A DNA stretch of 32,000 nt from Propionibacterium ruminifibrarum. GTDB lineage: Bacteria; Actinomycetota; Actinomycetes; Propionibacteriales; Propionibacteriaceae. Under the pieces are notes generated by a model that saw nothing but the letters and a program-made list of their open reading frames with translations, made no database searches and was not told the origin of the DNA. The stretch lies in NCBI RefSeq assembly GCF_900289195.1, contig NZ_OMOH01000007.1, positions 77,471 to 109,470 on the forward strand. Direction: 5' to 3'. The position numbers were made by a program, and so were the translations under genes. Below are positions 11,672 to 32,000 of the stretch, piece after piece (position 1 is the stretch's first letter; the number at the start of each line of letters is the position of its first letter).

Positions 11672-11676
11672 GGATC

Positions 11677-12912
11677 TCAGCCCCGGGCCAAGCCCTGGCG
11701 CATCGGCGTCATCTTGGAACCCGTCTCGTCCCACTCCAGCTCGGCGCGGGAGTCGGGCAGGATGCCCGCCCCGGCGAAGAGCCGCGCCCTGCGCGAGCCC
11801 GGCTCGAACTGGGCGCAGCGCAGCGCCAGACCCCACTGGCCCGAGCCGTCGGCGCCCATCCAGCCCACCGGGCCCGAGAAGCGTCCCCGGTCGAGCCGTT
11901 CGACGGCCTTGATCTGGGCGAAGGCCTCGGCCCTCGGCGTGCCGCAGATCGCCGCGGTGGGGTAGAGGACGTCCGCCACGTCGGCCGCGCTGCGCCCCGG
12001 CGCCACGCGCGCCGTGATGTCGGTCGCCAGGTGCGTCACATTGGGCAGTTCGAGCAGGTAGGGGCCGTGCAGCAGCGGGGCGCTGAGCCCGGCCTGCTCC
12101 AGGTGGGCCGTGACGGAGGCGACGGCCAGCGCGTGCTCGTGCTGCTCCTTCGGGTCGGTGAGCAGCTCCTGCACCCATCCGGGCTTGCGGGTGCCGGCCA
12201 GGATCCGGCAGCGGAAGACGCCGTCGTGCACGTCGACGAGCAGCTCGGGTGTCGCCCCCACCAGGCCGTCGTCCGCGTAGATCCAGCAGTCGGGGAAGCG
12301 CGTGCCGAGCCAGTCGAGCACGCCCACCTGGCTGAGCGGACGGTCGGCGGCGGCGTCGACGCTGCGGGCCAGGACGACCTTCTCCTCGACCCGGTCGGGG
12401 TCGGCGAGGACGGCGCGACTCGCGTCGATGGCCCGCGCCCATGCCTGCTCGGCGCCGGGCGCGGTGGTGAACTCGAGGCGGGGCGCGTCGCGGTGCACGT
12501 GGTCGCGGGGCCGCGGCTCCGGCTCGCCGGCGGGTGCGATGAGCCAGGTCGGCTCGCCGGCGGCGGCGCGGACGAGGGTGAACCGCGGGACGACGAGGAA
12601 ACCGCTCTGGGCCGGGTCGAACGGGAACGAGCCGAAGGCGAGGGGGCCCGCCCGGTGCCCGGCGGCCCAGTCTCGGAAGCGCCGCCATGCGGAGGCGACG
12701 GGCCCGGGGCCGACGGCCTCGAACCGGGCGAGCTCGCCCCAGCCGACCAGGGCCGGCCCGCCGTCCGGGGCGACCCACACCCAGGGGCGTTCCACGTCGG
12801 CGGGTACGAGGCTCAGCGCGGCGCTCAGCCACTGCGCGCTGCCGAGCCCGCGCCGGTCGTCGAGGGCGGCGGCACGACGGCGCGTCAGCGCGCTGACATC
12901 GGCCACCTCCAT
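11677..12912 (-). CDS. menF: isochorismate synthase
   Basis: 411 aa from ATG (CAT 12910-12912). Chorismate-binding motifs are GATPELLV, TAAICGTP, GRFSGPVGW and FAGAGILPDS. It is convergent with menD, with only 5 nt between the stops. Confidence 0.85.
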   Translation of the reverse strand: MEVADVSALTRRRAAALDDRRGLGSAQWLSAALSLVPADVERPWVWVAPDGGPALVGWGELARFEAVGPGPVASAWRRFRDWAAGHRAGPLAFGSFPFDPAQSGFLVVPRFTLVRAAAGEPTWLIAPAGEPEPRPRDHVHRDAPRLEFTTAPGAEQAWARAIDASRAVLADPDRVEEKVVLARSVDAAADRPLSQVGVLDWLGTRFPDCWIYADDGLVGATPELLVDVHDGVFRCRILAGTRKPGWVQELLTDPKEQHEHALAVASVTAHLEQAGLSAPLLHGPYLLELPNVTHLATDITARVAPGRSAADVADVLYPTAAICGTPRAEAFAQIKAVERLDRGRFSGPVGWMGADGSGQWGLALRCAQFEPGSRRARLFAGAGILPDSRAELEWDETGSKMTPMRQGLARG

Positions 12913-13101
12913 CACATCCGCCGAGTCTAGTGGAGCGGCCCGAACCACCCGCCCCGCGGTCCCAGCGGCCCTCGGCGGCGGGGGGCGTCGGAGTCCGCCG
13001 TGCCCGGCGTTCCACGGGTCACGGCCGATTCCCCCGGCGGGCCCGGCCCTCAACAGGGGTGGGATCGGGCGGGTTCGCCGGCCGGCGCGACGACCCGGGG
13101 C

Positions 13102-14334
13102 TCAGCCGTGTTCCCATGCCTCCCCGTCGGCCCGGGCCCGTGCCAGCAGCGCCCTGACCGCCGCCCGGTCGGGTTTGCCCGAGGCCAGGGCGGGCAGCTC
13201 GTCCAGGCGCAGGACGACCCGCGGCGCCCGCTCGCGTCCGACGGCCCGTCCGGTCGCCTCGCGCAGCCGCCTCGCGTCGAGGCCTGCGGGTGCGGCGACG
13301 GCGGCGGCGACGACCTGGCCCCAGCGGGCGTCCTCCAGCCCGACGACGACGCAGTCGCTCACCAGGCCGGTGCCCAGCACCGCCTCGGCGACGTCGGGGG
13401 CGCTGATCTTGAGGCCGCCGCTGACGATGACGTCATCGGTGCGCCCGCGGATCGACAGGACGCCGTCGGTCGTCGCGCCGAGGTCGTTCGTGGCCAGCCA
13501 CCGCTCACCGTCGATCAGCCGCACGCCCGGGGCGCCGTCGAGGTAGTCGCTCATCACCATCGGCCCGCCCAGCCAGACCCGCCCCGCCTCGCCGTCCCCG
13601 GGGCGGTCCCGGTCATCCGGGGCGCTGAACGCCACGTGGACCCCGGCCAGCGGGCGCCCGTCGTAGACGCAGCCGCCGCAGGTCTCGCTCATGCCGTAGG
13701 TCAGGCGCAGCGCGAGCCCGGCGGCCCGGGCGGCCGCCACGAGCGGGGCCGGGGTGGCGGCGCCGCCGACCAGGACGGCCGTCGCCTCGGCCAGGGCCCT
13801 CGTCGCCTCGGCGTCGGCCAGCGCATCGGACAGCTGGGTCGGCACCAGCGAGACGTAGGCGCGCCCGTCCGGGTCCCGCCGGGCGGCCCGCCGCACGGCC
13901 TCGCCGACGAGCCGGGGCGTGGCCCGCCCCTCGACGACGAGGGGCGGGCGGCCCGCCACGAGCGAGCGCGCGACCACCTGCAGGCCGGCGATGTGGTGCG
14001 GCGGCAGCGCGAGCACCCAGCTGCCCGCACCGCCGAGCCTGGCATGGGTGGCCTCGGCCGAGGCCCGCAGCTGCGCCCCCGACAGGCCGACGAGCCGCCC
14101 CCGTCCGGTCGTCGACCCGGAGGTGCGCACCACCAGACGCGCCCCGGGCGGCCTGCGCACGATGCGCGAGGCGGCGTCCCCGGCCAGGGCGCCGGCGTCC
14201 TCGTGCGGCCCGGCGGGCATGAGCAGCGGCCCGTCACCGCCGGCCAGGACCGGTTCCAGGGCGCGCGCCAGCGCCCCGGCCGACGTATCGGTGCGGTCGG
14301 CGACGAGGACGTCGGGCGCGGGGGAGCCGGTCAT
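13102..14334 (-). CDS. menE: o-succinylbenzoate-CoA ligase
   Basis: 410 aa, forming the C-terminal part of the 764-aa track ORF. Adenylate-forming motifs are TSGSTTGRGRLV, YGMSET, GDLG/RGRTDDVIVSGG and GKPDR. The ATG overlaps the menB stop (ATGA on the minus strand, 14332-14336). Confidence 0.85.
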   Translation of the reverse strand: MTGSPAPDVLVADRTDTSAGALARALEPVLAGGDGPLLMPAGPHEDAGALAGDAASRIVRRPPGARLVVRTSGSTTGRGRLVGLSGAQLRASAEATHARLGGAGSWVLALPPHHIAGLQVVARSLVAGRPPLVVEGRATPRLVGEAVRRAARRDPDGRAYVSLVPTQLSDALADAEATRALAEATAVLVGGAATPAPLVAAARAAGLALRLTYGMSETCGGCVYDGRPLAGVHVAFSAPDDRDRPGDGEAGRVWLGGPMVMSDYLDGAPGVRLIDGERWLATNDLGATTDGVLSIRGRTDDVIVSGGLKISAPDVAEAVLGTGLVSDCVVVGLEDARWGQVVAAAVAAPAGLDARRLREATGRAVGRERAPRVVLRLDELPALASGKPDRAAVRALLARARADGEAWEHG

Positions 14335-15341
14335 CAGAAGTAGTACGGGTACCGCGACCAGTCCGGCGCGCGGTGCTGCAGGAAGGCGTCGCGGCCCTCC
14401 TGGGCCTCCTCGGTCATGTAGGCCAGCCGGGTGGCCTCGCCGGCGAAGGCCTGCTGGCCCGCGATGCCGTCGTCGATCATGTTGAACGCGTACTTGAGCA
14501 TGCGGATCGACTGCGGCGACTTCGTGGCGACGGTCAGGCCCCACTCGATGGCGGTGTCCTCGAGTTCGGCGTGCGGGACGACCTTGTTGATGACGCCCCA
14601 GGCCTCGGCCTCGGCCGGCGTGTAGGGCTCGGCCAGGTAGAAGATCTGGCGGGCGCGCTTGTCGCCGATCTGGCGGGCCAGCAGCCCCGCGCCGTAGCCG
14701 GCGTCGAAGGAGCCGACGTTGGCGTCGACCTGCTTGAAGACGGCGTGCTCGGCGCTGGCGATGGCCAGGTCGCAGACGACCATGAGCGAGTGCCCGCCGC
14801 CGGTCGTCCAGCCGGGGATCGCCGCGATGATGGGTTTCGGGGTGGACCGCATGAGGCGCTGCACCTCGAGGATGTGCATACGGGCCCGCCGGCCCCGGTC
14901 GATGCGGGCGGCGCGTTCGGGCGTCATGCCCTGCTCCCGGCCCTCGTGCCCGGCCCCGTGCGGGGTCTCGTCGGACTGGTACTGGTAGCCGTCGGCGCCG
15001 CGCTGCAGCTGGTTGCCGCCCGAGGAGAAGGCGTAGCCGCCGTCCTTGGGGGAGGGACCGTTTCCGGTGAGCACGATCGCCGCGACGTCGGGCGTTGAGC
15101 GGGCGTCGTCGATGCAGCGGTACAGCTCGTCGACGGTCTGCGGCCCGAAGGCGTTGCGCAGCTCGGGACGGTCGATGGCGATCCGCACCACGGGCAGGTC
15201 GTGGCCCTGCGGTGCGCCGTCGACGTCGCCGCGGGAGACGAGACGGTGGTAGGTGGTCTCGCGGAGCGGAACGTCGTCGGGGGTCGCCTCGCGCCAGCGC
15301 GAGGCGTCGAAGGTGTCGGAAACGCCGGGAAGACTGCTCAT
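14334..15341 (-). CDS. menB: 1,4-dihydroxy-2-naphthoyl-CoA synthase
   Basis: 335 aa, crotonase fold, near-colinear with MenB as I recall it (RPELRNAF, GNGPSPKDGGYAFSSGG, HILEVQRL, GGGHSL, VVCDL, ATRLAYMTEEAQEGRDAF). The active-site loop is longer than in the M. tuberculosis enzyme. Confidence 0.9.
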   Translation of the reverse strand: MSSLPGVSDTFDASRWREATPDDVPLRETTYHRLVSRGDVDGAPQGHDLPVVRIAIDRPELRNAFGPQTVDELYRCIDDARSTPDVAAIVLTGNGPSPKDGGYAFSSGGNQLQRGADGYQYQSDETPHGAGHEGREQGMTPERAARIDRGRRARMHILEVQRLMRSTPKPIIAAIPGWTTGGGHSLMVVCDLAIASAEHAVFKQVDANVGSFDAGYGAGLLARQIGDKRARQIFYLAEPYTPAEAEAWGVINKVVPHAELEDTAIEWGLTVATKSPQSIRMLKYAFNMIDDGIAGQQAFAGEATRLAYMTEEAQEGRDAFLQHRAPDWSRYPYYF

Positions 15342-15635
15342 GGGGTGAAGGTATCACCGCCCCCACCGAGTCGGCGCCGCCCGCCGTGGGAGGCAACCGA
15401 TGTCATGGCCGGCGTGCATCGCGGGCTCAGCCGGCGGATCATGGATGTCCGCCGAGATGGTCGCGCCGATGGTGTCGACGGGCGGAAGCGTGGGGCTCAG
15501 CCACCGCGCAGCCATTCACGTAAGGCGGCGCGGATTGCTTCCGATCAGGTGACCGGGCCCTCGGCCTCGTCAGCCCGGGCCCGGATCCGCTCATCGCTCA
15601 TGGTGTCACCGTGGACCGGATGCTCCCGGCCGCGA

Positions 15636-16991
15636 TCAGATGTTCTTCGCCGGCTGGCCCGCGGCGTAGACGTTGTCGAGTTCGCGGCCGAGTTCGTCGA
15701 GGATGATCGTTGGGACCGCCGGCTCGGCGTTCGAGATGCGCTGGGCGTCGATCGGCAGCTCTGCGCGGGCGGCCTCGTGACGGTCGCGGGCGGCGGCGAG
15801 CGGCTCGGCGCCGACCACCTCGCCGTTGCGCACCAGGTCGACGAGCAGCGTGCGGTCCTTCGAACCGGCGCGCGGCGCCGCGTTGACGCCGATCACCTCG
15901 GCCTGGGCCAGGCCGTCGTCGTCGATGGAGCGAAGCGCGAACTTGCGGCCGCCGATCGTCTTCTTGTTCGCCGACTTCTTCGCCACGTCGATCATGGGCG
16001 CGTCGGGGGAGTCGGCGGCGGCGCGGGCGACGAGCTTGTAGACGAAACCGCAGGTGGGATGGCCCGAGCCGGTGACCAGGCTCGTGCCGACGCCGAAGCC
16101 GTCGACGGGGGCGCCGCGCAGGGCGGCGATCTGGTACTCGTCCAGGTCATTGGTGACGATGATCTTCGTGCGGGTGGCGCCGAGCCGGTCGAGCAGCTCG
16201 CGGACGTGCTTCACCTCGGTGAACAGGTCGCCCGAGTCGATCCGCACGCCGCCGAGGTCCCCGCCGGTCAGTTCGACGGCCTTCACGATCGCGGTGTCGA
16301 TGTCGTAGGTGTCGACCAGCAGCGTCGTGTCCTCGCCCAGCCACTCGAGCTGAGCGGCGAAGGCCTCGTCCTCGGAGTCGAAGAGCATCGTGAACGCGTG
16401 GGCCGCGGTGCCCGACACGGGGATGCCCCAGGTGCGGCCGGCCTCCAGGTCCGACGTGGAACTGAAACCGGCGATCCAGGCCGCACGGGCGGCCGCGACG
16501 GCCGAGGCCTCGTGGGTGCGCCGGGCCCCGAACTCGGCGATCGGGCGCCCCTGGGCTGCCATCGTCATGCGGGAGGCGGCCGCCGCGATCGCGCAGTCGT
16601 GGTTGTAGATCGACAGCAGGAGTGTCTCGAGCAGCACCGCGTCGGCGAACGAGCCCTCGACCTGCAGCAGCGGGGAACCGCCGAAGTAGAGCTCACCCTC
16701 GGGGTATCCGACGATGGTGCCGTGGAAGCGGTAGCCGGACAGGTACTCGGCGAGGGTGTCGTCGGCGACGCCGGCCCGCAGCAGGTAGTCGATCTCCTCG
16801 GCGCTGAAGCGGAAGTTCTCGAGGGCCTCGAGGGCGCGTCCGGTGCCGGCGACGACGCCGTAGGACCGGCCGGAGGGCAGGCGGCGGGGGAACAGCTCGA
16901 AGAGCACGTGACGGTTCGCGCGGCCCGCGTGGAGAGCCGCCTTGACCATCGTGAGCTCGTACATGTCGGTCAGCAGTGACGTGGTAGCCAT
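15636..16991 (-). CDS. pncB: nicotinate phosphoribosyltransferase
   Basis: 451 aa from ATG (CAT 16989-16991). The sequence MATTSLLTDMYELTMVKAAL... is the typical PncB N-terminus. The track's 132-codon upstream extension is Arg/Pro-rich and not credible. Confidence 0.9.
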   Translation of the reverse strand: MATTSLLTDMYELTMVKAALHAGRANRHVLFELFPRRLPSGRSYGVVAGTGRALEALENFRFSAEEIDYLLRAGVADDTLAEYLSGYRFHGTIVGYPEGELYFGGSPLLQVEGSFADAVLLETLLLSIYNHDCAIAAAASRMTMAAQGRPIAEFGARRTHEASAVAAARAAWIAGFSSTSDLEAGRTWGIPVSGTAAHAFTMLFDSEDEAFAAQLEWLGEDTTLLVDTYDIDTAIVKAVELTGGDLGGVRIDSGDLFTEVKHVRELLDRLGATRTKIIVTNDLDEYQIAALRGAPVDGFGVGTSLVTGSGHPTCGFVYKLVARAAADSPDAPMIDVAKKSANKKTIGGRKFALRSIDDDGLAQAEVIGVNAAPRAGSKDRTLLVDLVRNGEVVGAEPLAAARDRHEAARAELPIDAQRISNAEPAVPTIILDELGRELDNVYAAGQPAKNI

Positions 16992-22406: not shown

Positions 22407-23831
22407 GTGCGGGCGACGGCCAGCGTGCTGCACCTCGACCTCGACGCCTTCTTCGCGTCCGTCGAGCAGCGCGACAAGCCCTCGCTGGCCGGCAAGCCGG
22501 TCATCGTCGGGGGCGTCGGCGGCCGCGGCGTCGTCGCGACCGCCAGCTACGAGGCCCGCGTGTTCGGCGTGCACTCGGCCATGAGCACCAGCCAGGCCCG
22601 GCACCTCGCCCCGCACGCCGCCTACCTGGTCGGGCGTTTCAGCGCCTACCGCGAGTCGAGCCGTATCGTCATGGCCCTGCTCGGCGAACTCAGCCCGCTC
22701 GTCGAGCCCGTCAGCATCGACGAGGCCTACGCCGACCTCGCGGTCGGTGGGCAGGCCACCTCGCCGGCCGCGCTCACCGAACTCGTGGAACGCCTGCGCC
22801 GCGAGATCACCGAGCGGACCGAGGGTCTGCACGCATCGGTCGGCGTCGGCTCCAGCAAGTTCATCGCCAAACTCGCCTCCGAGGCCGCCAAGCCCGACGG
22901 CAGCCGCATCGTCGAGCCCGGCCAGGAGCTCGACTTCATCGCACCGCTCAACGTGCGGGCCATCCCCGGCATCGGCCCGGCGACCACCGAGAAACTGGGC
23001 CGTCTCGGCATCCAGACGGTCGCGCAGCTGCGCGAGGCGAGCCGGCACGAGCTCGTCCGTGAACTCGGCCAGGCGGTGGGACAGCACGTGCACGACATCG
23101 CCTTCGCCCGCGACGACCGCCCCGTCGCCCCGCGCGGCGAGGCCAAGTCCATCTCGGTCGAGGACACCTTCGAGGAGGACATCACCCAGCGGAGCGTCAT
23201 CGCGGAGGTCATCGCCAAGGACGCCCGGCTGGTCGCCGCGCGGCTCACCAGGGCCGGCCTGTTCGCCCGCACCATCACCCTCAAGGTCCGCATGGCCGAC
23301 TTCAGCACGGTGAGCAGGTCCCGCACCCTGCTGGGCGCCACCGACCGCCCCGAACGCATCGCGGACGTCGCCCAGGGCCTGGCGGCCGCCCTCAACCCGC
23401 GCGCCGGCGTACGGCTGGTCGGTGTCGGCGTCTCGAATTTCACCCAGGCCGCCCAGGAGGAGTTGTTCGAGACCAATGACGCCGAACCCGCGGCGGGGAC
23501 ACTCGTCAGTCGCGACGAGCCCGCCCCGCCGGTCACCGTGCGCCGCGCCGGCGCCGGCTACCTGCCCGGCATGGATGTCGAGCACGAGCAGTGGGGCCGC
23601 GGCTGGGTGTGGGGCTCGGGGCACGGCGTCGTCACCGTCCGCTTCGAGCAGCGCGGCGGTCCTGTCGGCCCGGTCCGTTCCTTCAAGCTGGACGACCCCC
23701 TGCTGCACCCCGTCGAGCCCCTGCCGCTGCCCTTCGCCGTGCCCGAGGACGACGAGGCGGAGCAGCGCGGGCCCGGCTGGGCCCGTCAGGTGCACGACCT
23801 GGGGTCCACGGCCCCGGGCCCGGCCGTGTGA
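22407..23831 (+). CDS. dinB: DNA polymerase IV (Y-family) with an extended C-terminus
   Basis: 474 aa from GTG 22407. Motifs are LHLDLDAFFASVE, SIDEAYADL and SVGVGSSKFIAKLAS. A QEELF clamp-like motif lies at 23454-23468, and a Tudor-like HEQWGRGWV...VTVRF segment follows at 23568-23720. Confidence 0.9.
   Translation: MRATASVLHLDLDAFFASVEQRDKPSLAGKPVIVGGVGGRGVVATASYEARVFGVHSAMSTSQARHLAPHAAYLVGRFSAYRESSRIVMALLGELSPLVEPVSIDEAYADLAVGGQATSPAALTELVERLRREITERTEGLHASVGVGSSKFIAKLASEAAKPDGSRIVEPGQELDFIAPLNVRAIPGIGPATTEKLGRLGIQTVAQLREASRHELVRELGQAVGQHVHDIAFARDDRPVAPRGEAKSISVEDTFEEDITQRSVIAEVIAKDARLVAARLTRAGLFARTITLKVRMADFSTVSRSRTLLGATDRPERIADVAQGLAAALNPRAGVRLVGVGVSNFTQAAQEELFETNDAEPAAGTLVSRDEPAPPVTVRRAGAGYLPGMDVEHEQWGRGWVWGSGHGVVTVRFEQRGGPVGPVRSFKLDDPLLHPVEPLPLPFAVPEDDEAEQRGPGWARQVHDLGSTAPGPAV
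23621..23677 (+). repeat. direct repeat copy 1 (inside the dinB 3-prime region)
   Basis: 57 nt matching 25033-25089 at 51 of 57 positions by hand alignment, including an exact 17-nt run (ggcggtcctgtcggcccggtccg core). Confidence 0.85.
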
Positions 23832-23849
23832 GGCCCGACCGAACCGGGG

Positions 23850-23955
23850 GTACAACGCGTCCCGGTCGACAACGGCGGCGAACCACTCCAGGTCGCCGGT
23901 CACCGGATCGCGCACCGGAAGCTCATACGCGATGGCCCCTGCCCGGTGGTGCCGC
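23850..23955 (-). pseudogene. relic of a second AbiEii/MenT-type toxin 3-prime end
   Basis: It lies immediately downstream of the toxin stop. The minus-strand reading ..YELPVRDPVTGDLEWFAAVVDRDALYP parallels the toxin segment FRLARQTDPGFDLEWFARSLDTVERIHP. An exact 19-nt match exists (23877-23895 = 24088-24106). There is no start codon, and it overlaps the region just past the dinB stop. Boundaries are approximate. Confidence 0.6.
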
Positions 23956-24615
23956 TCAGTGAAGATGCGCGCGGATGTCGGCAGCCCATTCCTCCATGCG
24001 TGTTTTCACGCCGTCGAGCTCCTCGGGGCTCACCCCGTAGACACGGACCTCCTCCGGGTGGATGCGTTCCACCGTGTCAAGGCTCCTGGCGAACCACTCC
24101 AGGTCGAAGCCGGGATCAGTCTGCCGGGCGAGACGAAACAACTCCTCATCGGTGAATCGTCCCGATCGGCGGATCGCATCGACGTCCACTTGGTCACGCG
24201 CCTCGGCACGCGAGAACAGGGCGGCGACCTTGTTTCCCACGGCGTCCTCGAGGGAGAGGACGGGACCGATCCCCAGACGCACGGGCTCGTGTGCCCGCCA
24301 GTCCACGGCGAGATTGATCCCCGTCAGGAATCCTTGCGCGCCGGTCACCGTGAGCTGGGCGAACGTGCCCTGATGACGGCGGATATCGATGGAATACCCC
24401 TGTGAGCGCAGCGCGGCGATGACCCTGTCGAGGGACTGGTCGAACGTGGCCGCGGCCTGCTGGGTGGTGAACAGGTCGACGTCCTCGGTCGACCGGTCGA
24501 TCAGGCCGTGCTCGCGTATCGCGCCCGAGCCGGCGAGAGCGAAACCGGAGCCATCGCCAGTCGCCGTCAGGGCGATGCGGGCGACGCGTCGCTGCTCGGC
24601 GTGGCCGCCGCTCAC
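23956..24615 (-). CDS. nucleotidyltransferase toxin, AbiEii/AbiGii (DUF1814, MenT-like) family
   Basis: 219 aa. The GTG start overlaps the upstream gene's stop (GTGA at 24612-24615). The NTase-fold signature is LAGSGAIREHGLIDRSTEDVDLF (hG[GS]...DxD), and the size is that of the short MenT-type members. Confidence 0.7.
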   Translation of the reverse strand: MSGGHAEQRRVARIALTATGDGSGFALAGSGAIREHGLIDRSTEDVDLFTTQQAAATFDQSLDRVIAALRSQGYSIDIRRHQGTFAQLTVTGAQGFLTGINLAVDWRAHEPVRLGIGPVLSLEDAVGNKVAALFSRAEARDQVDVDAIRRSGRFTDEELFRLARQTDPGFDLEWFARSLDTVERIHPEEVRVYGVSPEELDGVKTRMEEWAADIRAHLH

Positions 24616-24944
24616 GAGGATTTCACAAGCTCGGGGAACCGGTCCTCCCACAGCTCGCGGAGCCGCGGATCCATGGTGAGGATCGGCCACGTCTCGATGA
24701 GCCGGGTACGGTTCACGAGCCGGCGTTGCTCCTCGGCGGTGCCCTCGGCGAGAAGGGCCTGGTAGGCCATGCGCCGCCACCCCGGCTCACTCACGTTCAC
24801 GGCGAACCGGTCGGGCTGCCAGCGCACGGCGTGGGGCAGGTCGATGGTCCCGTCATGAGGACCGCGCAGTTCGTCGAGCGAGTCGGGGGCCTCGTAGGGC
24901 TTGGTGTCGCGGAGCCGCACCCGACGCCCCGTCGTCTCTGCCAT
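24612..24944 (-). CDS. putative cognate antitoxin (small, family not recognised)
   Basis: 110 aa with GGAAGGAG 6 nt upstream of the ATG. It is translationally coupled to the NTase toxin. I can see no HTH. The role is inferred from position only. Confidence 0.55.
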   Translation of the reverse strand: MAETTGRRVRLRDTKPYEAPDSLDELRGPHDGTIDLPHAVRWQPDRFAVNVSEPGWRRMAYQALLAEGTAEEQRRLVNRTRLIETWPILTMDPRLRELWEDRFPELVKSS

Positions 24945-25007
24945 GGCCCGGTCTCCTTCCCGTTCACAGCGTACTCGTCTGGGGCCTGGCGGCTGTCCTG
25001 AGTCAGC

Positions 25008-25093
25008 GTGTCGGGCCGCGGGCTGATCGGAGGCACGGCGTCGTCACCGTGCGTTTCGTGCGGCATGGCGGTCCTGTCGGCCCGGTCCGATGA
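25008..25093 (+). pseudogene. decayed copy of the dinB C-terminal (Tudor-like) coding segment
   Basis: In the dinB-equivalent frame it reads ..RRHGVVTVRFVRHGGPVGPVR-stop, against dinB GHGVVTVRFEQRGGPVGPVRSF... I find no ATG or GTG start in the ~90 nt upstream that I translated, and the domain is truncated. The core 25033-25089 is repeat copy 2. Similarity is weaker and has indels at 25008-25032. Confidence 0.6.
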
Positions 25094-25249
25094 GCACAGC
25101 TGCGTCGTTGTGTCGGGTATGTCGGCCAACGTGCGGAGCGGTTCCGATCGAACGTTGGCCCGCCGAGAGTCATCGGGGTGTCACCCACAGCGCTAGGCAG
25201 GAGGTGGGGCCGCGGTGATGTCAGGCAGTCGATCGTCACGCCCGATTAT

Positions 25250-25295
25250 TTGCGTATTCCTTTCATATAAGTTACGTTAACTGCATTAAACGTAA
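25250..25295 (+). promoter_or_regulatory. candidate promoter (TTGCGT-17-TACGTT) with an overlapping inverted-repeat operator
   Basis: It lies in an 80-nt stretch (25241-25320) with 31 of 80 G+C. The -35-like TTGCGT is at 25250-25255 and the -10-like TACGTT at 25273-25278. The imperfect inverted repeat TTACGTTAA-ctgca-TTAAACGTAA spans 25272-25295, about 90 nt upstream of the PTS start. Confidence 0.4.
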
Positions 25296-25385
25296 GGCAC
25301 ACGGAACTTATTCGTTGTCGGATCCTTTCCAGGAGCGCCGATGGCGCACCAGCCATCGGCAGTGAGACCAAAGGAAGTGGAGTCA

Positions 25386-27371
25386 ATGACTGATTCCAGG
25401 CATCTCTTGGCCATCACCGCCTGTCCCAGCGGAGTGGCCCACACCTACATGGCCGCGGAGGCCCTGACCGACGCCGCGGCCGCCCGGGGCTTCACGATCG
25501 ATGTGGAGACGCACGGCTCGATCGGTGTGGAGGGGACCTTCACCCAGGACAGCATCGATCGTGCCGATGCGGTGATCATCGCCGCCGACAAGAACATCGA
25601 GCTGGATCGTTTCAGGGGAAAGCCGGTGGTCGTGTCGACGGTGTCCGAGGGCATCAATCGCGCCGACGGGCTCATCGATGACGCCCTGGTCGCGAAGCCG
25701 CTTGAGGGTGAGGCGTCGGCGTCGAAGTCGGCGGAGCACACTGGTGCCGGTGTCATCTACAAGGCGTTGATGAACGGCGTCTCCCACATGATCCCCTTCG
25801 TCGTGACCGGTGGGTTGATGCTCGCACTGGCCTACAGCATCGGCGGCACGCCCACCCAGCAGGGCCTGGTGATCCCTGAAGGGAGCTTCTGGTACCTGAT
25901 CAGCCAGATCGGCACACTGGCCTTCAACCTCATGGTGCCGGTGCTGTCCGGTTTCATTGCCATGGCGATTGCGGACAGGCCCGGGTTGGCGCCGGGGCTC
26001 ATCACTGGTTTCATCGCTACCACGCCGGCCCTTTACCACTCAGAAGCGGGCGCCGGTTTCCTGGGAGGCATCGTCACCGGGTTCATGTCGGGCTGTGTGG
26101 CACTGCTGATCAAGAAGATCAAGGTGCACAAGTGGATCGCACCGATCTGGCCCATCATCGTGATCCCGGTGCTGACCACGACCGTGGTCGGCCTGATCTT
26201 CGTCTATGCCCTCGGCACGCCCATCGCGGCGTTCTTCACCTGGCTCACCACGGCTCTCGCCGGGATGGGAGGCACCCAGGTGGGGCTGCTCGGCCTGCTG
26301 CTCGGAGCCATGATCGGATTCGACATGGGCGGACCGGTGAACAAGGTCGCCTTCCTGTTCGCCGGTGGTCTCATCGCTTCGGGAACTTCCGTGCCCATGG
26401 GCATGGTCGCCGTCGCCATCGCCACGCCACCCATTGGCATGGGAGTGGCCACGCTCGTCCGTCGTCGCCTGTTCACCGATGCTGAACGCGAGAATGGCAT
26501 TGCCGCCATCTTCATGGGTTTCTTCGGCATCACCGAGGGCGCCATCCCCTTTGCCGCAGCGCATCCTCTCCAGGTGATTCCGGCGAATGTCATCGGTTCG
26601 GCCGTGGGCGCCGCGGTGGCTGGCCTGTTCGGTGTGAGCAACGAGGTCATGTGGGGCGGAGGGATCGTCGCCGTGCTCGGAGTGGTGAACAGGCCGCTCC
26701 AGTTCTTCTGCGCACTCGCCGTGGGCGTCGCCGTCAACGCGGTCCTGGCCATCCTGCTGCTCGACCTCGGCAATCTGCGCTCACGCCGAACCGATCGCGC
26801 CATTCCCGATCAGGATCAGGACACGAGGACCGATGCCGTCGACGCCCCGGGCGATGCGGCCGGATCGCCAGTCGAGACCGCCGACAAGGCTGAGCCTGCG
26901 ACCCGGGCGGTCTCCTTCACGGACTACCTGCGGCCCGACTCGGTCATCCTCGACGAGAAGCTGATCGGCCGAGAGCAGGTGATCGCAGCCCTCGCCGCGA
27001 GGGGCACGGCCACCGGACAGCTCAAGGACGCCGATCAGATCGTCGCGACGGCCATGGACCGGGAGGCCATGGGCACCACCGCGGTCGGTGACGCGCTGGC
27101 CATTCCCCACGCCAAGTGCGATGCCGCCATCGAGCCCTTCCTGGGCTTCGCCCGGTTGTCCGCGGGCATCGACTGGGAAGCAGCCGACGGTGGACCCGTC
27201 GACCTCGTCTTCCTCATCGCGGTGCCCGAGGCCGCGGCAGGGAACGAACATCTCAGGATCCTCGCCGCCCTCGCCCGCACGCTCATGCACGAACGGGTGC
27301 GTGAGGAACTGTACGCAGCACGCACCCCCAAGGACGTCATCGACGTCCTCAGCGGACGAGTCCGGGCGTGA
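25386..27371 (+). CDS. PTS fructose-family transporter, fused EIIB-EIIC-EIIA
   Basis: 661 aa from ATG 25386, with AAGGAAG 8 nt upstream. The EIIB(Fru) site is LAITACPSGVAHTYMAAEAL (Cys13). The ~340-aa EIIC has multiple TM segments. The C-terminal EIIA type 2 carries ALAIPHAK (His575). Confidence 0.9.
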   Translation: MTDSRHLLAITACPSGVAHTYMAAEALTDAAAARGFTIDVETHGSIGVEGTFTQDSIDRADAVIIAADKNIELDRFRGKPVVVSTVSEGINRADGLIDDALVAKPLEGEASASKSAEHTGAGVIYKALMNGVSHMIPFVVTGGLMLALAYSIGGTPTQQGLVIPEGSFWYLISQIGTLAFNLMVPVLSGFIAMAIADRPGLAPGLITGFIATTPALYHSEAGAGFLGGIVTGFMSGCVALLIKKIKVHKWIAPIWPIIVIPVLTTTVVGLIFVYALGTPIAAFFTWLTTALAGMGGTQVGLLGLLLGAMIGFDMGGPVNKVAFLFAGGLIASGTSVPMGMVAVAIATPPIGMGVATLVRRRLFTDAERENGIAAIFMGFFGITEGAIPFAAAHPLQVIPANVIGSAVGAAVAGLFGVSNEVMWGGGIVAVLGVVNRPLQFFCALAVGVAVNAVLAILLLDLGNLRSRRTDRAIPDQDQDTRTDAVDAPGDAAGSPVETADKAEPATRAVSFTDYLRPDSVILDEKLIGREQVIAALAARGTATGQLKDADQIVATAMDREAMGTTAVGDALAIPHAKCDAAIEPFLGFARLSAGIDWEAADGGPVDLVFLIAVPEAAAGNEHLRILAALARTLMHERVREELYAARTPKDVIDVLSGRVRA

Positions 27372-27416
27372 ACCCGGCCCACAACACCCATCCCCGTACG
27401 GAAGAAGAACTGACAC

Positions 27417-28115
27417 ATGCTGATCCTCATCGATGATGCGAACCTCGAGGACGTGGCCGCGATCTGGTCCACACTCCCCGTGGACGGGGTCACCACCAAC
27501 CCCACGATCCTGGCCCGCCAACACCGGGACCCGCTGCGGACACTGCGTGAGCTGCGCGAGCTGCTGGGCGCCGGCCCGCAGCTGCACGCCCAGGTGGTGG
27601 GCACCGAGCCCGACGTCATGGTCAACGAGGCCCTGGCGTTGCGCGGAGAACTGGGCGAGGACCTCTTCGTGAAGATCCCGGTGACCGAGGCAGGCTATGT
27701 CGCCATGCGGCGTCTGAGTGCTCAGGGAGTGAACGTCACGGCCACCGCGATCCACGCACCCATGCAAGCCTTCCTCGCCGCCAAGGCCGGTGCGCGTTAT
27801 GTGGCCCCCTACATCAACCGGCTCGACAACCTGGGCGCGGACGGGGTGCGGGTTGCGGCCGAGATCCAGACGCTCCTCGACGTTCACCGCATGGACACGC
27901 AGCTGCTTGCCGCCTCGTTCAAGAACTCCCAGCAGATCACCGAACTCGCGAAGCTCGGTGCCGGTGCCGTCACGGCGGCGCCGGCGGTGCTGAGAAATCT
28001 GTTCCGCAACGCCACCACCGATGCGGCCGTGGCCGAACAACGCGCAGACTTGGAATCCGTCATCGGCGCGGGGCACACATTCGCCGATCTCGTCGGCTCG
28101 GAGGAGACATCATGA
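27417..28115 (+). CDS. fsa: fructose-6-phosphate aldolase-type class I aldolase (transaldolase subfamily 5)
   Basis: 232 aa, colinear with E. coli FsaA as I recall it (VDGVTTNPTI, LHAQVVG, FVKIPVT, YVAPYINRLDN, LAASFKN). The Schiff-base residue is Lys86. Gln59, Thr110 and Tyr132 occupy the FSA-specific positions. Confidence 0.85.
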   Translation: MLILIDDANLEDVAAIWSTLPVDGVTTNPTILARQHRDPLRTLRELRELLGAGPQLHAQVVGTEPDVMVNEALALRGELGEDLFVKIPVTEAGYVAMRRLSAQGVNVTATAIHAPMQAFLAAKAGARYVAPYINRLDNLGADGVRVAAEIQTLLDVHRMDTQLLAASFKNSQQITELAKLGAGAVTAAPAVLRNLFRNATTDAAVAEQRADLESVIGAGHTFADLVGSEETS

Positions 28116-30487
28116 CGACAACCATTTCCCATCGACCCAGCATCATGAACATCGAGCAGTCGCCACGCATCGGCGCGCTGCGCACCGCCATGCTCGACGA
28201 GCCACGCGTGGTCTCGATCGAGCAGGCCCGCATCACCACCAGGGTCTACCGGGACAACCCCGACGAACCGGTCATCGTCAAAAAGGCCCTGGCCCTGGCG
28301 GCGGCACTGCGGGAGATGGAGATCACCATCCGGCCCGGGGAACTGCTCGTGGGCAACCGCACCCCCACGGCCAGGGCCGGCGTGGTCTCTCCCGAGGCCG
28401 GGGCCTCCTGGGTGGACCGGGAGATCGAGACCCTGCCCACCCGGCCCCAGGATCGCTTCGACGTGGACCAGGGGACCATTGACGAGTTCCGCGAGCACAT
28501 CTACCCGTTCTGGACCGGTGTCTCGTTGGAGGACGTCATCGCCGAGCGGCACGGTCCCCGGATCAAGGAGATCTCGAAAGTCGTCAAGATCAACCAGACC
28601 GATCACGCCCAGGGGCACATCTGTCCCGACGTGGACCTGTGGCTGCGGATGGGGCCGGCCGGGCTCGGCGCCCAGGCGGAACGGCTGGGAGAAGACGCCA
28701 GCGGCGAGCAGAGGGACTTCTACCGTGCCGTCGGTATCGTCATGTCCGGCGCCTGCGACTTCCTGCAGCGCTACGCCGCCCTCGCCAGGGCACAGGCCGC
28801 CGAGTCCCCGGACCGGCGGGCGCGCGAGCTGACCGAGGTGGCCCGGGTCTGCCAGGGGCTCGCGAGCCGGCCCGCCGAGGGATTCCACGAGGCCCTCCAG
28901 AGCGTCTGGATGCTCTTCGTCATCCTGCACATGGAGTCCAACGCCTCGTCCTTCTCACCCGGCCGCCTGGACGTCATCCTGCAGCCCTACCTGGAGGACA
29001 GCCGCGGGAACGGACTGAGCGACGAGGCCGCACTCGAGCTCGTGGAGTGCCTGTGGCTGAAGTTCAACGAGATCGTGTACATGCGCAACGCCTCCAGCGC
29101 GAAGTACTTCGCCGGCTTCCCGATCGGTTTCAACATCTGCGTCGGCGGGCAGGACGTGAACGGCGAGGACGTGGTGAACGACGTCTCCTATCTGTTCCTC
29201 GCCGCTCAGTCCCACCTGGGCATGCCCCAGCCCAATCTGTCGGTGCGTCTGCACGAGGGGACCAGCGAGGAACTGCTCACCGAGGCCGTGCGAGTGGTCG
29301 CCAAGGGCTCGGGCATGCCGCAGTTCTTCAACGACAAGTCGGTCGTACCGGCTCTGAAGGCCGTCGGGATCGCGGAACACGACGCCCGCAACTACGCCGT
29401 GGTGGGCTGCGTCGAACTGACCACTCAGGGCAACAACCTGGGCTGGAGCGACGCGGCGATGTTCAACCTCGACAAGGCCCTGGAACTGACCCTCACCGGT
29501 GGCGTTGACCTGCTGACGGGGGAGCGGATCGGCCCGGACCTCGGCTCGCTGGAGAGCTACGCCTCCTACGAGGAACTGGAGGCTTCCTTCGCGAAGATGA
29601 TCGACCACTACGTCGATGCCATGATCGCTGCCTGCGAGCAGGTCGAGCGGGCCCACATGGACGTTCTGCCCACCGCATTCCTGTCGGCCGTCATTGACGA
29701 CTGCCTGAGTACCGGGCGTGATGTCACCGCCGGGGGAGCCGTGTACAACCTGTCCGGCATCCAGATGATCCAGGTCGCCTCGCTCGCCGACTCGCTGGCG
29801 GCCCTGAAGAAACTCGTCTTCGAGGAACGGCGGATCAGCCCCCAGACGATGATGGCCGCGTTGAAGGCGGACTTCCAGGGCTACGAGGTCGAGCAGGCCC
29901 TCATGCTCAACAAGGCACCCAAGTACGGCAATGACATCGCGTACGTGGACGAGCTCGGCGCGAAGTGGGCGGACTACTTCGCCGAGAAGTTGCGCTCCTA
30001 CACCAACGCGCGGGGCGGGCGCTACCACACCGGCATGTACACCGTGTCCGCGCACGTCCCCATGGGCCAGAACGTCGGCGCATCCCCGGACGGGCGCAGG
30101 GCCGGTACGCCGCTGGCCGATGGTGGCCTGTCCCCGGTGTACGGGCGCGACATGGCAGGGCCGACCGCTGTGCTCAAGTCGGTGTCGGCGATGGACAACA
30201 CGTGGACGTCCAACGGGGGCCTGCTCAACCTGAAGTTCCTCCCAGAGTTCTTCGACTCGGAGACGAACATCGCGAAGTTCGTCTCGTTCCTGAGGGCCTT
30301 CGTCGATCTGGAGATCCCTCACGTCCAGTTCAACGTGGTGCGTGCCGAGGACCTCATCGCGGCGAAAGCCCACCCCGACCAGTACCGCAGCCTGACGGTC
30401 CGGGTCGCCGGGTACACGGCCTACTTCGTGGAACTCGCCGGTGACCTGCAGGACGAGATCATCGCTCGCACCACCCAGGAACTGTAA
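28112..30487 (+). CDS. glycyl radical enzyme, PflD/YbiW-like (1,2-eliminase/dehydratase type)
   Basis: 791 aa. The ATG overlaps the aldolase stop (ATGA). The Cys loop is VVGCVELT (Cys433 at 29408-29410, Glu435). The glycyl radical motif is LTVRVAGYTAYF (Gly767 at 30410-30412). KAPKYGNDIAYVD and SPDGRRAGTPLADGGLSP are GRE hallmarks. Confidence 0.9.
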   Translation: MTTTISHRPSIMNIEQSPRIGALRTAMLDEPRVVSIEQARITTRVYRDNPDEPVIVKKALALAAALREMEITIRPGELLVGNRTPTARAGVVSPEAGASWVDREIETLPTRPQDRFDVDQGTIDEFREHIYPFWTGVSLEDVIAERHGPRIKEISKVVKINQTDHAQGHICPDVDLWLRMGPAGLGAQAERLGEDASGEQRDFYRAVGIVMSGACDFLQRYAALARAQAAESPDRRARELTEVARVCQGLASRPAEGFHEALQSVWMLFVILHMESNASSFSPGRLDVILQPYLEDSRGNGLSDEAALELVECLWLKFNEIVYMRNASSAKYFAGFPIGFNICVGGQDVNGEDVVNDVSYLFLAAQSHLGMPQPNLSVRLHEGTSEELLTEAVRVVAKGSGMPQFFNDKSVVPALKAVGIAEHDARNYAVVGCVELTTQGNNLGWSDAAMFNLDKALELTLTGGVDLLTGERIGPDLGSLESYASYEELEASFAKMIDHYVDAMIAACEQVERAHMDVLPTAFLSAVIDDCLSTGRDVTAGGAVYNLSGIQMIQVASLADSLAALKKLVFEERRISPQTMMAALKADFQGYEVEQALMLNKAPKYGNDIAYVDELGAKWADYFAEKLRSYTNARGGRYHTGMYTVSAHVPMGQNVGASPDGRRAGTPLADGGLSPVYGRDMAGPTAVLKSVSAMDNTWTSNGGLLNLKFLPEFFDSETNIAKFVSFLRAFVDLEIPHVQFNVVRAEDLIAAKAHPDQYRSLTVRVAGYTAYFVELAGDLQDEIIARTTQEL

Positions 30488-31453
30488 ATGAATGGTTCCG
30501 CCTCCGCCGGCGCGCAGCGGGCCCGTGACGGCTTGCTGCGCGCCAACGTGGTGGACATCCGCCGTTTCTCCACCCACGACGGCAGGGGCATCCGCACCAC
30601 GGTGTTCATCAAGGGCTGTTCGCTGGCCTGCGGCTGGTGCCAGAATCCCGAGACGATCAGGCCCCGTCTGGGCCCGGTCTTCTTCGCCAAGAAGTGCATC
30701 GACTGCGGCCTGTGCCTGCCGCTGTCCCGCAACGGGGAGATGACACGCGGACCGGACGGCATGGTCGCGCACCTCGAGGTCGAGGGCGAGTGGGAGGAAC
30801 TCGCCGCCGTCTGTCCCACCGGCGCGATCGCCCTCAACGGCAGGTCCTACACCGTCGATGAACTGGTGGACGTCGTGATGGCCGACCGGGCCTTCTTCGG
30901 CCACGGCGGGGGAGTGACCCTCTCGGGCGGTGAACCGCTCCTCGTGCCGCACTTCGCGGCAGCCGTCTTCGCCCGGCTGCGCGACAGGGGCATCCACACC
31001 GCCGTCGAGACGGCACTGAACGTCCGCACCGAGTTCGTGCTGGAAGCGGCGCCCCTCGTCGACCAGTTCTTCGCCGATCTCAAGATCATCGACCCGGAGG
31101 ACCACCGCCGTTGGACCGGCCACACCAACGAGCGGATCCTGGACAACCTGCGGGTGCTGCTCACCTCGCCGTGGCGCGACCGGGTGATCGTGCGGACCCC
31201 GCTCATCCCGGGCGTCACGGCCACCGACGAGAACATCGCCGGCATCGCCGGTTTCATCACGGACCTGTACCCCGATGTCCACTACGAGCTCCTCAACTAC
31301 AACCCGCTCGCCATCGCGAAGTACGAACTGGTGACGGGCCACTCCTTCCTGTTCACGGAGCAGACGAACCCGAAGCGCTACACGGCGCAGCAGATGGAGC
31401 ACTTCCGCCGGATCGCCGCCGACGCCGGCGTGAGGAACCTGGTGGAGGATTGA
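30488..31453 (+). CDS. glycyl-radical enzyme activating protein (radical SAM)
   Basis: 321 aa. The ATG directly abuts the GRE TAA stop. The radical SAM motif is CSLACGWC (CX3CX2C, 30617-30640). A ferredoxin-like insert CIDCGLC...VCPTGA and GGGVTLSGGEP (SAM-binding) are present. Confidence 0.9.
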   Translation: MNGSASAGAQRARDGLLRANVVDIRRFSTHDGRGIRTTVFIKGCSLACGWCQNPETIRPRLGPVFFAKKCIDCGLCLPLSRNGEMTRGPDGMVAHLEVEGEWEELAAVCPTGAIALNGRSYTVDELVDVVMADRAFFGHGGGVTLSGGEPLLVPHFAAAVFARLRDRGIHTAVETALNVRTEFVLEAAPLVDQFFADLKIIDPEDHRRWTGHTNERILDNLRVLLTSPWRDRVIVRTPLIPGVTATDENIAGIAGFITDLYPDVHYELLNYNPLAIAKYELVTGHSFLFTEQTNPKRYTAQQMEHFRRIAADAGVRNLVED

Positions 31454-31541
31454 GATGGTGCACTGCTCCAAGGATTTCCGCTTCTGAGCCATCGATGCCG
31501 CCCGGGCCGATAGCATGAGCGCAGGTTCGGGAGGGAGCACG

Positions 31542-32000
31542 ATGAGCGTCGACCGTGGTGAGAGGGAGAAACGCATCCTGGCGCTGCTGGGCCGTGACGG
31601 GTCCTTGTCCGTGAAGGCACTCTCCCATGACCTCGGGGTCTCGGAGGTCACGGTGCGATCCCAGCTGAGCGAGATGGAGGAACGCGGCCTGCTCACCCGC
31701 ACCCACGGCGGCGCCCAGGCCAACACCATGCGGTCCGTCCTCGAACGTGCGCACCAGCACCCGCAGGCCAAGGAACGGATCGCCCGCGCCGCCGCGTCGC
31801 TGGTCCACGACGACGACCGGATCATGATCGAGGCCGGTACCACGACCGCCCAGGTCGTGCGTTTTCTCACGGCGGTCCATGGCGTGCAGATCGTCACCAA
31901 CTCGCTGCTCGTGCTCACCTACGCCCGGCAGGTTCCCGGACTGTCAATCACCCTCACCGGCGGTGAATTCGACACCGAGTCGGAGTCGATGGTGGGCCCG
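31542..32000 (+). CDS. DeoR/GlpR family transcriptional regulator (3-prime end beyond the window)
   Basis: Not in the track because it is open-ended; I translated it by hand. It reads MSVDRGEREKRILALLGRDGSLSVKALSHDLGVSEVTVRSQLSEMEERGLLTRTHGGA (DeoR wHTH), then IMIEAGTTT...IVTNS (sugar-phosphate sensor domain). GGGAGGGAG lies upstream. In-frame ATG 31515 is an alternative start. Confidence 0.85.
   Translation, partial: MSVDRGEREKRILALLGRDGSLSVKALSHDLGVSEVTVRSQLSEMEERGLLTRTHGGAQANTMRSVLERAHQHPQAKERIARAAASLVHDDDRIMIEAGTTTAQVVRFLTAVHGVQIVTNSLLVLTYARQVPGLSITLTGGEFDTESESMVGP

Follow-up and report, generated by a model that had tools for sequence, protein, structure and literature searches.

A five-gene cassette that is probably dedicated to anhydroglycolysis

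We analysed 32,000 nucleotides of the Propionibacterium ruminifibrarum genome (assembly GCF_900289195.1, contig NZ_OMOH01000007.1, positions 77,471 to 109,470; hereafter the window), the right end of which carries a cluster of genes built around a glycyl radical enzyme (GRE). In order, and all on the + strand, the genes encode a fused EIIBCA enzyme II of the phosphotransferase system (PTS), an aldolase of the fructose-6-phosphate aldolase (FSA) type, the GRE, its activase and a DeoR regulator. Judged by the combination of PTS, GRE and FSA aldolase, the region is probably a self-contained anhydroglycolysis-type cassette. This reading draws on the identities of the genes, their intact catalytic motifs, the position of the GRE within the PflD superclade, the recurrence of the linkage in other genomes and the structure of the genomic islet that carries the cassette; from these we infer the substrate, each reaction step in this organism, co-transcription and regulation.

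Direct reading of the sequence gave exactly the layout proposed in the initial annotation, with five co-directional genes at the same coordinates and with the same three junctions. The PTS gene (25341-27371, 676 aa as the longest open reading frame (ORF)) ends in a TGA at 27371, and 45 nt separate it from the ATG of the aldolase gene (27417-28115, 232 aa). The aldolase stop and the start of the GRE gene (28112-30487, 791 aa) form an ATGA overlap at 28112-28115, right after a GGAGGAG Shine-Dalgarno sequence, and the GRE TAA (30485-30487) directly abuts the ATG (30488-30490) of the activase gene (30488-31453, 321 aa). After a gap of 88 nt, deoR begins at 31542; its N-terminal 153 aa lie within the window (31542-32000) and the rest beyond its end, and a second in-frame ATG is found at 31515. 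The gene is complete (252 aa, ending at ~32299 in window numbering) on L007, a metagenome contig 98% identical to the window, where cobalamin-pathway methyltransferase genes come after it. The start of the PTS gene is ambiguous (25341 or 25386), because NCBI annotates the protein from Met16 (25386; 661 aa); the conserved EIIB domain does not start until residue 24.

All five ORFs are translated without interruption and their GC content at third codon positions (GC3) is 0.83-0.92, typical of real genes in this genome. NCBI proteins SPF68979-SPF68982 of P. ruminifibrarum match the window proteins exactly. A 987-aa ORF on the minus strand (28955-31918) was dismissed as a high-GC artefact because it failed the GC3/GC2 test, while the five plus-strand genes passed. 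A hairpin scan found no terminator-like hairpin in any intergenic gap of the five-gene set. The tight packing of the genes, with an overlap, an abutment and no predicted intergenic terminators, counts in favour of a single functional cassette. Domain searches with Pfam and NCBIfam agreed with all five gene identities of the initial annotation, and its description of the GRE loop as an eliminase-type Cys-x-Glu loop was borne out by the motif given below.

The GRE belongs to a sister family of PflD

The GRE matched the Pfam families PFL-like (E=3e-194) and Gly_radical (E=2.8e-27). Its Cys loop reads GCVE at residues 432-435 (Cys433-x-Glu435) and its glycyl motif RVAGY at 764-768, with the radical at Gly767. 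C433-V-E435 is invariant across the 84 members of the clade described below. By these motifs the enzyme classifies as an eliminase/isomerase (Cys-x-Glu) within the PFL-like division (RVxG[FWY]). The best matches among PDB entries were the PflD proteins of E. coli (8yjo, E=8e-189, 632 bits) and Streptococcus dysgalactiae (8id0, E=2e-181, 608 bits), followed by glycerol dehydratase (554 bits) and then by a 'glycyl radical protein' of 2025-26 (9rco), propanediol dehydratase and CutC. In the same search YbiW scored 457 bits (1e-136) and pyruvate formate-lyase (PFL; 1H16) 133 bits (1e-37).

In pairwise comparisons, the identity of the GRE is 42% with E. coli PflD, 40% with S. dysgalactiae PflD (8id0) and 37% with YbiW; between the two PflDs themselves the figure is 61%. 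Since E. coli PflD shares 41% identity with glycerol dehydratase, nearly as much as with the window GRE, raw identity was rejected as a classifier and a tree and motifs were used. The tree was built by neighbour-joining from 132 full-length GREs with 200 bootstraps; they were sampled from 1.8 billion proteins clustered at 50% identity, each cluster being represented once. The clade of the window GRE formed a separate branch with 100% bootstrap support. This clade, an intermediate lineage (P0124) and both PflDs fell into one group with 98% support; YbiW and glycerol dehydratase were placed outside this superclade, and a grouping with glycerol dehydratase received 17%. The GRE is thus PflD-like by descent and yet part of a distinct sister family; given its 40-42% identity to the PflDs and a score below the PflD equivalog cut-off, it is not a PflD orthologue in the narrow sense.

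The window clade comprises 84 sequences, mostly from gut Firmicutes. Its taxa are Lachnospiraceae, Erysipelotrichaceae, Selenomonadales, Coriobacteriia and Propionibacteriaceae; those of PflD are Enterobacteria, Lactobacillales, Bacillus and Clostridium. The window protein is 74% identical to proteins of Luteococcus and other Propionibacteriaceae; hundreds of further proteins, found in Lachnospiraceae, Erysipelotrichaceae, Selenomonadales/Veillonellaceae, Collinsella and Treponema, share 62-68% identity with it. NCBI names it 'formate C-acetyltransferase/glycerol dehydratase family'.

Pocket motifs are shared with PflD

Seven motifs are common to the window clade and the PflDs and absent from glycerol dehydratase and YbiW: GNRT, NQTD..QGHI, ESNASS, AGFP, G(M/I)PQ, YTVSAH and ADGG(L/M)SP. 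We take the substrate contacts of glycerol dehydratase to be H164, H281/S282, Y339, C433, E435, D447 and Y640; at the homologous positions the window GRE has the same residues as PflD (H, S/S, F, C, E, D and Y). Among 77 columns that form the signature of the PflD pair, the window GRE keeps 13, compared with 5-9% in glycerol dehydratase and YbiW. Eight of these signature residues are held across the whole clade (R32, R83, N161, Q162, D164, Q167, S279 and F726), mostly inside the shared motifs. The pocket-proximal motifs are near-invariant over the 84 members, including two paralogues from one Lachnospiraceae genome. The pattern is consistent with a single isofunctional family whose substrates are of a PflD-like class, and it would suit 1,5-anhydromannitol-6-phosphate (AM6P), 1,5-anhydroglucitol-6-phosphate (AG6P) or a near analogue alike.

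The two paralogues (L017 and L033) come from Lachnospiraceae MGYG-HGUT-00152 and have identical pocket motifs. One lies in a bare DeoR-GRE-activase unit, the other with genes for an FSA aldolase, a PTS, a PRD-type regulator and an RPE-like epimerase.

The accompanying proteins match a PTS, FSA and activase system

The PTS protein combines the domains IIB-IIC-IIA in one polypeptide, with PTS_IIB at residues 24-110 and EIIA_2 at 529-671 (Pfam). It exceeded the cut-offs of TIGR00829 (97.8 against 76.9 bits), of the fructose-type IIC model TIGR01427 (282 against 157.6) and of TIGR00848 (117.6 against 103.5), and it carries the phosphorylation motifs CPSGVAHT in EIIB and AIPH in EIIA. Its scores lie below the cut-off of every sugar-specific equivalog (FruA, MngA, FrwC and FrvB). 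By these profiles the protein classifies as a member of the fructose-family enzymes II.

The aldolase matched TAL_FSA (Pfam, E=2.9e-47) and shares 35% identity with FsaB. When it is aligned with FsaA and FsaB, residues D6, N28, Q59, K85, T109, A129, Y131, R134 and S166 (FsaA numbering) are invariant. K85 is the Schiff-base lysine, and Q59 together with Y131 separates FSA aldolase from transaldolase activity. Because its scores fall short of all three NCBIfam FSA cut-offs (188 against 306, 186 against 246 and 184 against 214 bits), we regard it as a divergent member of the FSA family. The enzyme, whose residues place it in the FSA/TalC subfamily, is predicted to cleave 1-deoxyfructose-6-phosphate to glyceraldehyde-3-phosphate (G3P) and hydroxyacetone.

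The activase scored 263 bits with TIGR02494 (cut-off 174) and matched Radical_SAM and Fer4_12 in Pfam. It has the CX3CX2C radical-SAM motif (CSLACGWC) and a ferredoxin-like insert (CIDCGLC...CPTGA), and is assigned from these features to the PflC/YbiY group of GRE-activating enzymes. The regulator has the Pfam domains HTH_DeoR and DeoRC, and its full-length gene is present on L007 and on L091, a contig of Propionibacterium australiense. We presume that it acts as a repressor responsive to a sugar phosphate.

The linkage recurs across the GRE clade

The gene neighbourhoods of the closest homologues, a survey that the initial annotation had called for, were examined at 80 species-representative loci in tblastn searches using a panel of proteins and through clustering of neighbouring ORFs, with recurrent families annotated by Pfam; many of the 80 loci sit on truncated contigs. 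The activase gene lies beside the GRE gene at 74 loci, a DeoR regulator gene at 51 and an FSA aldolase gene at 36. Genes for a PRD-type regulator (22 loci), fructose-type IIA/IIB/IIC (about 21) and Enzyme I (10) were less frequent, followed by those for a YbiV-like HAD phosphatase (8), a GFO/IDH/MocA oxidoreductase (8), an RPE/AlsE-like epimerase (6), a ROK kinase (about 5) and a homologue of GldA, 50-55% identical to E. coli GldA (3). Loci from Anaerostipes, Luteococcus and Collinsella were inspected singly as examples. Linkage to FSA and PTS genes is scattered over the entire clade tree and not confined to one branch; one Erysipelotrichaceae branch has DeoR, GRE and activase genes only. By analogy with E. 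coli, the recurrence of the same partner set (PTS, FSA, HAD and GldA) is the strongest indirect evidence that the GRE product may be an FSA substrate that yields hydroxyacetone.

GFO/IDH/MocA genes adjoin the GRE or activase gene in Luteococcus (L005, 1359-3695 and 7253-8212, with a GH31 gene) and at L012, L015 and L016. The idea that the Luteococcus genes encode an alpha-glucan lyase and a 1,5-anhydrofructose reductase was not supported by the best structure matches. For the oxidoreductase the best match was dimeric dihydrodiol dehydrogenase (6e-38), compared with 9e-12 for the S. morelense 1,5-anhydrofructose reductase 2GLX, and for the GH31 protein it was a structure annotated as an alpha-xylosidase. 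In Collinsella (L006, 5649-9535), AbiEi_4 and TP_methylase genes lie just upstream of the DeoR-GRE cassette. Their likeness to the AbiE and cob-methyltransferase neighbours of the Propionibacterium cassette may be a coincidence or may reflect a shared island history.

A proposed pathway and its alternatives

Anhydroglycolysis was described in E. coli by Ma et al. (JACS 2024, 146:26187, PMID 39283600), as related in a 2026 review of GREs (PMC13450708) and a 2025 review (PMC12441222). In the passages of PMC13450708 that deal with these enzymes, YbiW cleaves a C-O bond of AG6P and PflD one of AM6P; both give 1-deoxyfructose-6-phosphate, which the aldolases FsaA/B cleave to G3P and hydroxyacetone. 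The same passages class YbiW and PflD as GRE isomerases that keep the CXE motif and cite the structures 8ID7 (YbiW with AG6P) and 8ID0 (PflD with AM6P). Both E. coli pathways start with PTS-dependent phosphorylation, according to the corresponding part of PMC12441222. The initial annotation had put this biochemistry forward, and the substrates, the product and the split by FsaA/B agree with what PMC13450708 states of them. It had also spoken of dehydratases, the label that PDB and UniProt use for PflD and YbiW ('probable dehydratase'); this term was given up, and we describe the chemistry as ring opening and not dehydration, because the review classes both enzymes as C-O-cleaving isomerases (PMC13450708). 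The gene sets that the initial annotation had named around the two E. coli enzymes are present in strain K-12, as gldA-fsaB-ptsA/frwC-frwB-pflD-pflC-frwD and as ybiV-ybiW-ybiY/fsaA. Its view of the cluster as a streamlined actinobacterial version with a single-polypeptide PTS is in keeping with the fused IIB-IIC-IIA protein, the PflD-superclade GRE and the linked FSA gene.

Applied to the window, the pathway would begin with the fused EIIBCA, which would import a 1,5-anhydrohexitol, most likely 1,5-anhydro-D-mannitol and possibly 1,5-anhydro-D-glucitol, and phosphorylate it at C6. Under anoxia the radical-SAM activase would install the radical on Gly767 of the oxygen-sensitive GRE. The Cys433 thiyl radical would then abstract a hydrogen from C2 of the sugar phosphate, Glu435 would deprotonate the C2-OH and the ring C-O bond would break, giving 1-deoxyfructose-6-phosphate in what would be an isomerisation. 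The FSA-type aldolase would split this product into G3P, which would enter glycolysis, and hydroxyacetone, which would be reduced or excreted by functions encoded elsewhere. DeoR would repress the operon until a phosphorylated intermediate accumulates, perhaps via a palindrome at 25272-25295. As the initial annotation had noted for the window, a 1-phosphofructokinase gene is lacking; none was found in the window or, on L007, in the 3 kb past its end. Beyond the window, L007 shows no gene for any kinase, dehydrogenase, HPr or Enzyme I. Which anhydro-sugar phosphate the GRE takes can only be inferred, because the enzyme falls below the PflD equivalog cut-off and shares 40-42% identity with the PflDs. 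Within the anhydroglycolysis reading, AM6P is the foremost candidate at somewhat under an even chance, AG6P or a dual specificity is a distinctly weaker possibility, and what is left falls to a close analogue.

Several observations weigh against this pathway. The GRE scored 736.5 bits with the NCBI PflD equivalog NF007437 (cut-off 1109), it is about as distant from PflD (40-42% identity) as PflD is from glycerol dehydratase (41%), and it retains just 17% of the PflD-pair signature columns. We counted 53 fixed differences between the clade and the PflDs, several of them beside pocket residues. Among the latter, the window GRE has H165 where PflD has K, I338/F340/N341 where it has T/Y/T and, after the Cys loop, T438, N442, L443, W445 and S446 in place of I, T, Y, L and H. 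FSA or PTS genes were not seen within 7 kb in about half of the related loci. In the window and the 3 kb beyond it on L007, neither a hydroxyacetone reductase (GldA) nor a glycerol dehydrogenase gene was found, the former absence having been noted for the window in the initial annotation, and neither HPr nor Enzyme I is encoded in or beside the cassette. Our literature search found no expression, growth or enzymatic data for Propionibacterium or any member of the clade.

The same architecture and radical C-O chemistry could serve another PTS-derived sugar or polyol phosphate, an alternative that we consider possible though rather unlikely. The substrate could then be a different 1,5-anhydrohexitol-6-phosphate stereoisomer, a phosphate derived from 1,5-anhydrofructose, or a hexitol-6-phosphate undergoing true C1-OH elimination, and the product would be a 1-deoxy-ketose phosphate cleavable by FSA, sometimes with the help of the RPE-like epimerase. 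A distinct clade with internally near-invariant pocket motifs is what one would expect of an isofunctional family with its own specificity, and the fixed differences next to first-shell positions and the missed PflD cut-off point the same way, as do the epimerase, GFO/IDH/MocA and ROK kinase genes of some loci, which are unreported for the E. coli pathway. Against this, the positions homologous to what we take to be the first shell of glycerol dehydratase are all identical to PflD, the PflD and window clades are found in largely complementary taxa, a distribution that vicariant orthologues would show, and genes for an epimerase or an oxidoreductase are missing from the window cassette itself. 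FSA is stereospecific for the D-threo configuration, which AM6P and AG6P give, and this specificity also suits an AM6P or AG6P product. A bolder version of the alternative, which we hold to be a little more doubtful still, is that the clade represents a third isofunctional family of ring-opening sugar-phosphate GREs; it would act on a PTS-delivered anhydro- or deoxy-sugar phosphate other than AM6P and AG6P, and it would be spreading as a minimal five-gene module that integrates at dinB by homologous recombination.

A function of the GRE as a glycerol/1,2-diol-type dehydratase or as some other small-molecule eliminase, with the PTS and aldolase genes adjacent by chance, appears very improbable. 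The Cys-x-Glu loop is typical of eliminases, glycerol dehydratase was the third-best PDB match and its name is part of the NCBI family name; yet the GRE lies in a separate clade, the glycerol-binding residues, which we take to be His281 and Tyr339, are Ser and Phe in the GRE as in PflD, no microcompartment, aldehyde dehydrogenase or propanediol genes were found nearby, and the linkage to FSA and PTS genes recurs across phyla. A cryptic or decaying passenger that the host does not use is also improbable, if slightly less so. Such a passenger would be in line with a strain-variable islet, with the broken GRE frame in P. australiense GCA_003666625 and with the lack of linked HPr, Enzyme I and hydroxyacetone reductase genes, but all five window ORFs are intact with complete catalytic motifs and gene-like GC3, and near-identical copies occur on several independent metagenome contigs. 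Finally, we give virtually no credence to a pyruvate or 2-ketobutyrate formate-lyase, a function suggested by historical annotation alone in the legacy names 'pflD' and 'formate acetyltransferase 2'. PFL has an adjacent Cys-Cys pair in its loop, unlike the single Cys followed by x-Glu of the window GRE. The grouping with true formate-lyases that the initial annotation had named as a refuting outcome was not seen, the enzyme scoring 154 bits with the PFL equivalog TIGR01255 (cut-off 994) and falling into the PflD group, and E. coli PflD has itself been reassigned, as the passages on it in PMC13450708 relate. Weighed together, these points leave anhydroglycolysis as the reading that we favour.

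The cassette lies on a strain-variable islet at dinB

Upstream of the cassette the window carries housekeeping genes (malQ, men genes, NAPRT, murI, rph, rdgB, thyA and dinB), and the GC content drops from ~72% to ~66% near 24 kb. The gene at the insertion site is dinB (22407-23831). Two direct repeats of 95 nt with 97.9% identity flank the inserted DNA. The left repeat (23709-23803, + strand) is formed by the last ~95 nt of homology within dinB, and the right one lies just past deoR at ~32292-32386 in window numbering (L007, 8583-8677). P. australiense LR134442, a complete genome, has the empty site (L088, 11015-11749), and there dinB is followed directly by cobalamin methyltransferase genes. 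The insert at the 3' end of dinB measures ~8.5 kb in the window and on L007. In P. australiense GCA_003666625 (L091, 11015-19219) it measures 7.4 kb, holds only the five genes and is bounded by a 383-bp direct repeat of the dinB 3' region that is 96% identical. From window position 25250, where homology starts, the cassettes of the two species share 95% identity, compared with ~90% for flanking core genes, and the GC content of the cassette is 66%, compared with 72% for its surroundings. The cassette is a strain-variable, horizontally acquired islet that moves as a unit.

No integrase is present in the islet. Given this absence and the dinB-derived repeats, the structure suggests a single-crossover, Campbell-type integration at dinB of a circular molecule that carried a dinB' fragment. 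Upstream of the PTS gene, at 25034-25089, lies a 56-bp fragment that is 86% identical to the interior of the dinB 3' region (L088, 11216-11271); it suggests a scar of more than one recombination event at the site. In L091 the frame of the GRE gene (14611-16982) is broken, with frame 1 encoding residues 1-113 and frame 3 residues 104-791, which reflects a pseudogene or else an error in sequencing.

Between dinB and the cassette, on the - strand, lies a gene for an AbiEii-like nucleotidyltransferase toxin (longest ORF 23956-24780; 219 aa, ~23956-24615, on L007/L090). It matched AbiEii in Pfam (E=2.6e-10) and gave weak AbiEii matches in PADLOC. An overlapping 110-aa ORF on the same strand (24612-24944), a possible antitoxin, had no Pfam or PADLOC match. 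The module is present on L007 and L090, and because it is absent from the P. australiense copy of the cassette (L091) we regard it as a separate passenger or insertion that stands outside the pathway.

In the upstream part of the window, a menaquinone block at 9100-15400 includes genes for a MenD-like TPP enzyme and an isochorismate synthase and is the highest-GC part of the window (77-78%). Gene starts in it are uncertain, with long overlapping ORFs on both strands. In the syntenic L088 the block has an AMP-binding MenE-like gene and, after it, a gene for a MenB-type enoyl-CoA hydratase.

A candidate operator precedes the PTS gene

The left edge of the cassette (25250-25340, + strand) is AT-rich within a genome of 66-72% GC and is the likely promoter/operator region. 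A near-perfect 24-nt palindrome with the halves TTACGTTAACTG and CATTAAACGTAA lies at 25272-25295, inside an AT-rich island (25245-25315), and is enclosed by a second inverted repeat (25267-25277/25301-25311). The half-site pattern occurs twice there, against 0.03 occurrences expected in the window. This palindrome is a plausible candidate for the DeoR operator. It was not found in Luteococcus promoters, which have a different inverted repeat. A sigma-70 scan gave one match, at chance level, with a model that is uninformative for this organism, and an Rfam scan of 23500-32000 gave nothing credible (best E=0.07, far under the gathering score).

Discussion

The closest parallel to the window cassette is the E. 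coli locus frwCB-pflDC-frwD/ptsA-fsaB-gldA. The two systems share a PTS of the fructose family, an FSA aldolase, a group-2 activase and a GRE of the PflD type whose loop is Cys-x-Glu. Their GREs belong to the same superclade (98% support), and identity is 42% between the window IIC domain and FrwC and 35% between the window aldolase and FsaB. In contrast to the separate FrwC, FrwB, FrwD and PtsA proteins of E. coli, the window PTS is a single IIB-IIC-IIA polypeptide. The window also differs in having no GldA, which is the hydroxyacetone reductase of E. coli, and no EI/HPr fusion; its GRE is 42% identical to that of E. coli and below the equivalog cut-off, its regulator is a DeoR protein whereas the putative regulator YijO stands beside frwD, and its genes form one co-directional unit of ~6.7 kb on an islet inserted at dinB.

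Among solved structures, S. dysgalactiae PflD in complex with AM6P (8ID0), one of the two best matches, shares GNRT, NQTD..QGH, ESNASS, AGFP, YTVSAH and ADGGLSP with the window GRE. The two proteins are 40% identical, and they differ after the Cys loop, where PflD reads IPGRTYGLHD and the window TQGNNLGWSD, and at K/H165, TGY/IGF and VQGIG/IQMIQ (PflD/window). The second E. coli system, ybiV-ybiW-ybiY/fsaA, likewise joins a GRE, an activase and an FSA aldolase, and 1-deoxyfructose-6-phosphate is the expected product of both systems; a YbiV-like HAD phosphatase is also encoded at some loci of the window clade. YbiW, however, belongs to a distant clade (37% identity), with unrelated motifs at every compared segment (GNQA, ESNGHS, AGSP and GCIE...YRCTG), and no PTS gene adjoins ybiW. 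The B12-independent glycerol dehydratase of Clostridium butyricum (1R8W/1R9D) has the same fold, the same loop and the same numbering of Cys433, Glu435 and Asp447, but it belongs to another clade, has His281 and Tyr339 where the window has Ser and Phe, and reads ADG-VSP, without the extra Gly of the window ADGGLSP.

Together, these comparisons extend the radical route of anhydroglycolysis from E. coli to high-GC Actinobacteria of the rumen, at the strength of the reading that we favour. The pathway itself was already known; the GRE comes from an uncharacterised family that is a sister to PflD, and the islet at dinB is newly recognised. The large and tightly conserved GRE clade to which the enzyme belongs, common in gut Firmicutes, is publicly labelled 'formate C-acetyltransferase/glycerol dehydratase family'. 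If the clade takes AM6P or AG6P, many anaerobes of the gut and rumen could harvest 1,5-anhydro-sugars from the diet and the host. One of these sugars, 1,5-anhydroglucitol, is a clinical marker of glycaemia and the precursor of a toxin in the neutropenia of G6PC3 deficiency and glycogen storage disease type Ib (GSD-Ib). If the clade takes another substrate, it would represent a new GRE reaction. With cassette-free and cassette-bearing strains occurring naturally in the sister species, the islet would be a handy minimal module with which to test the pathway or transplant it.

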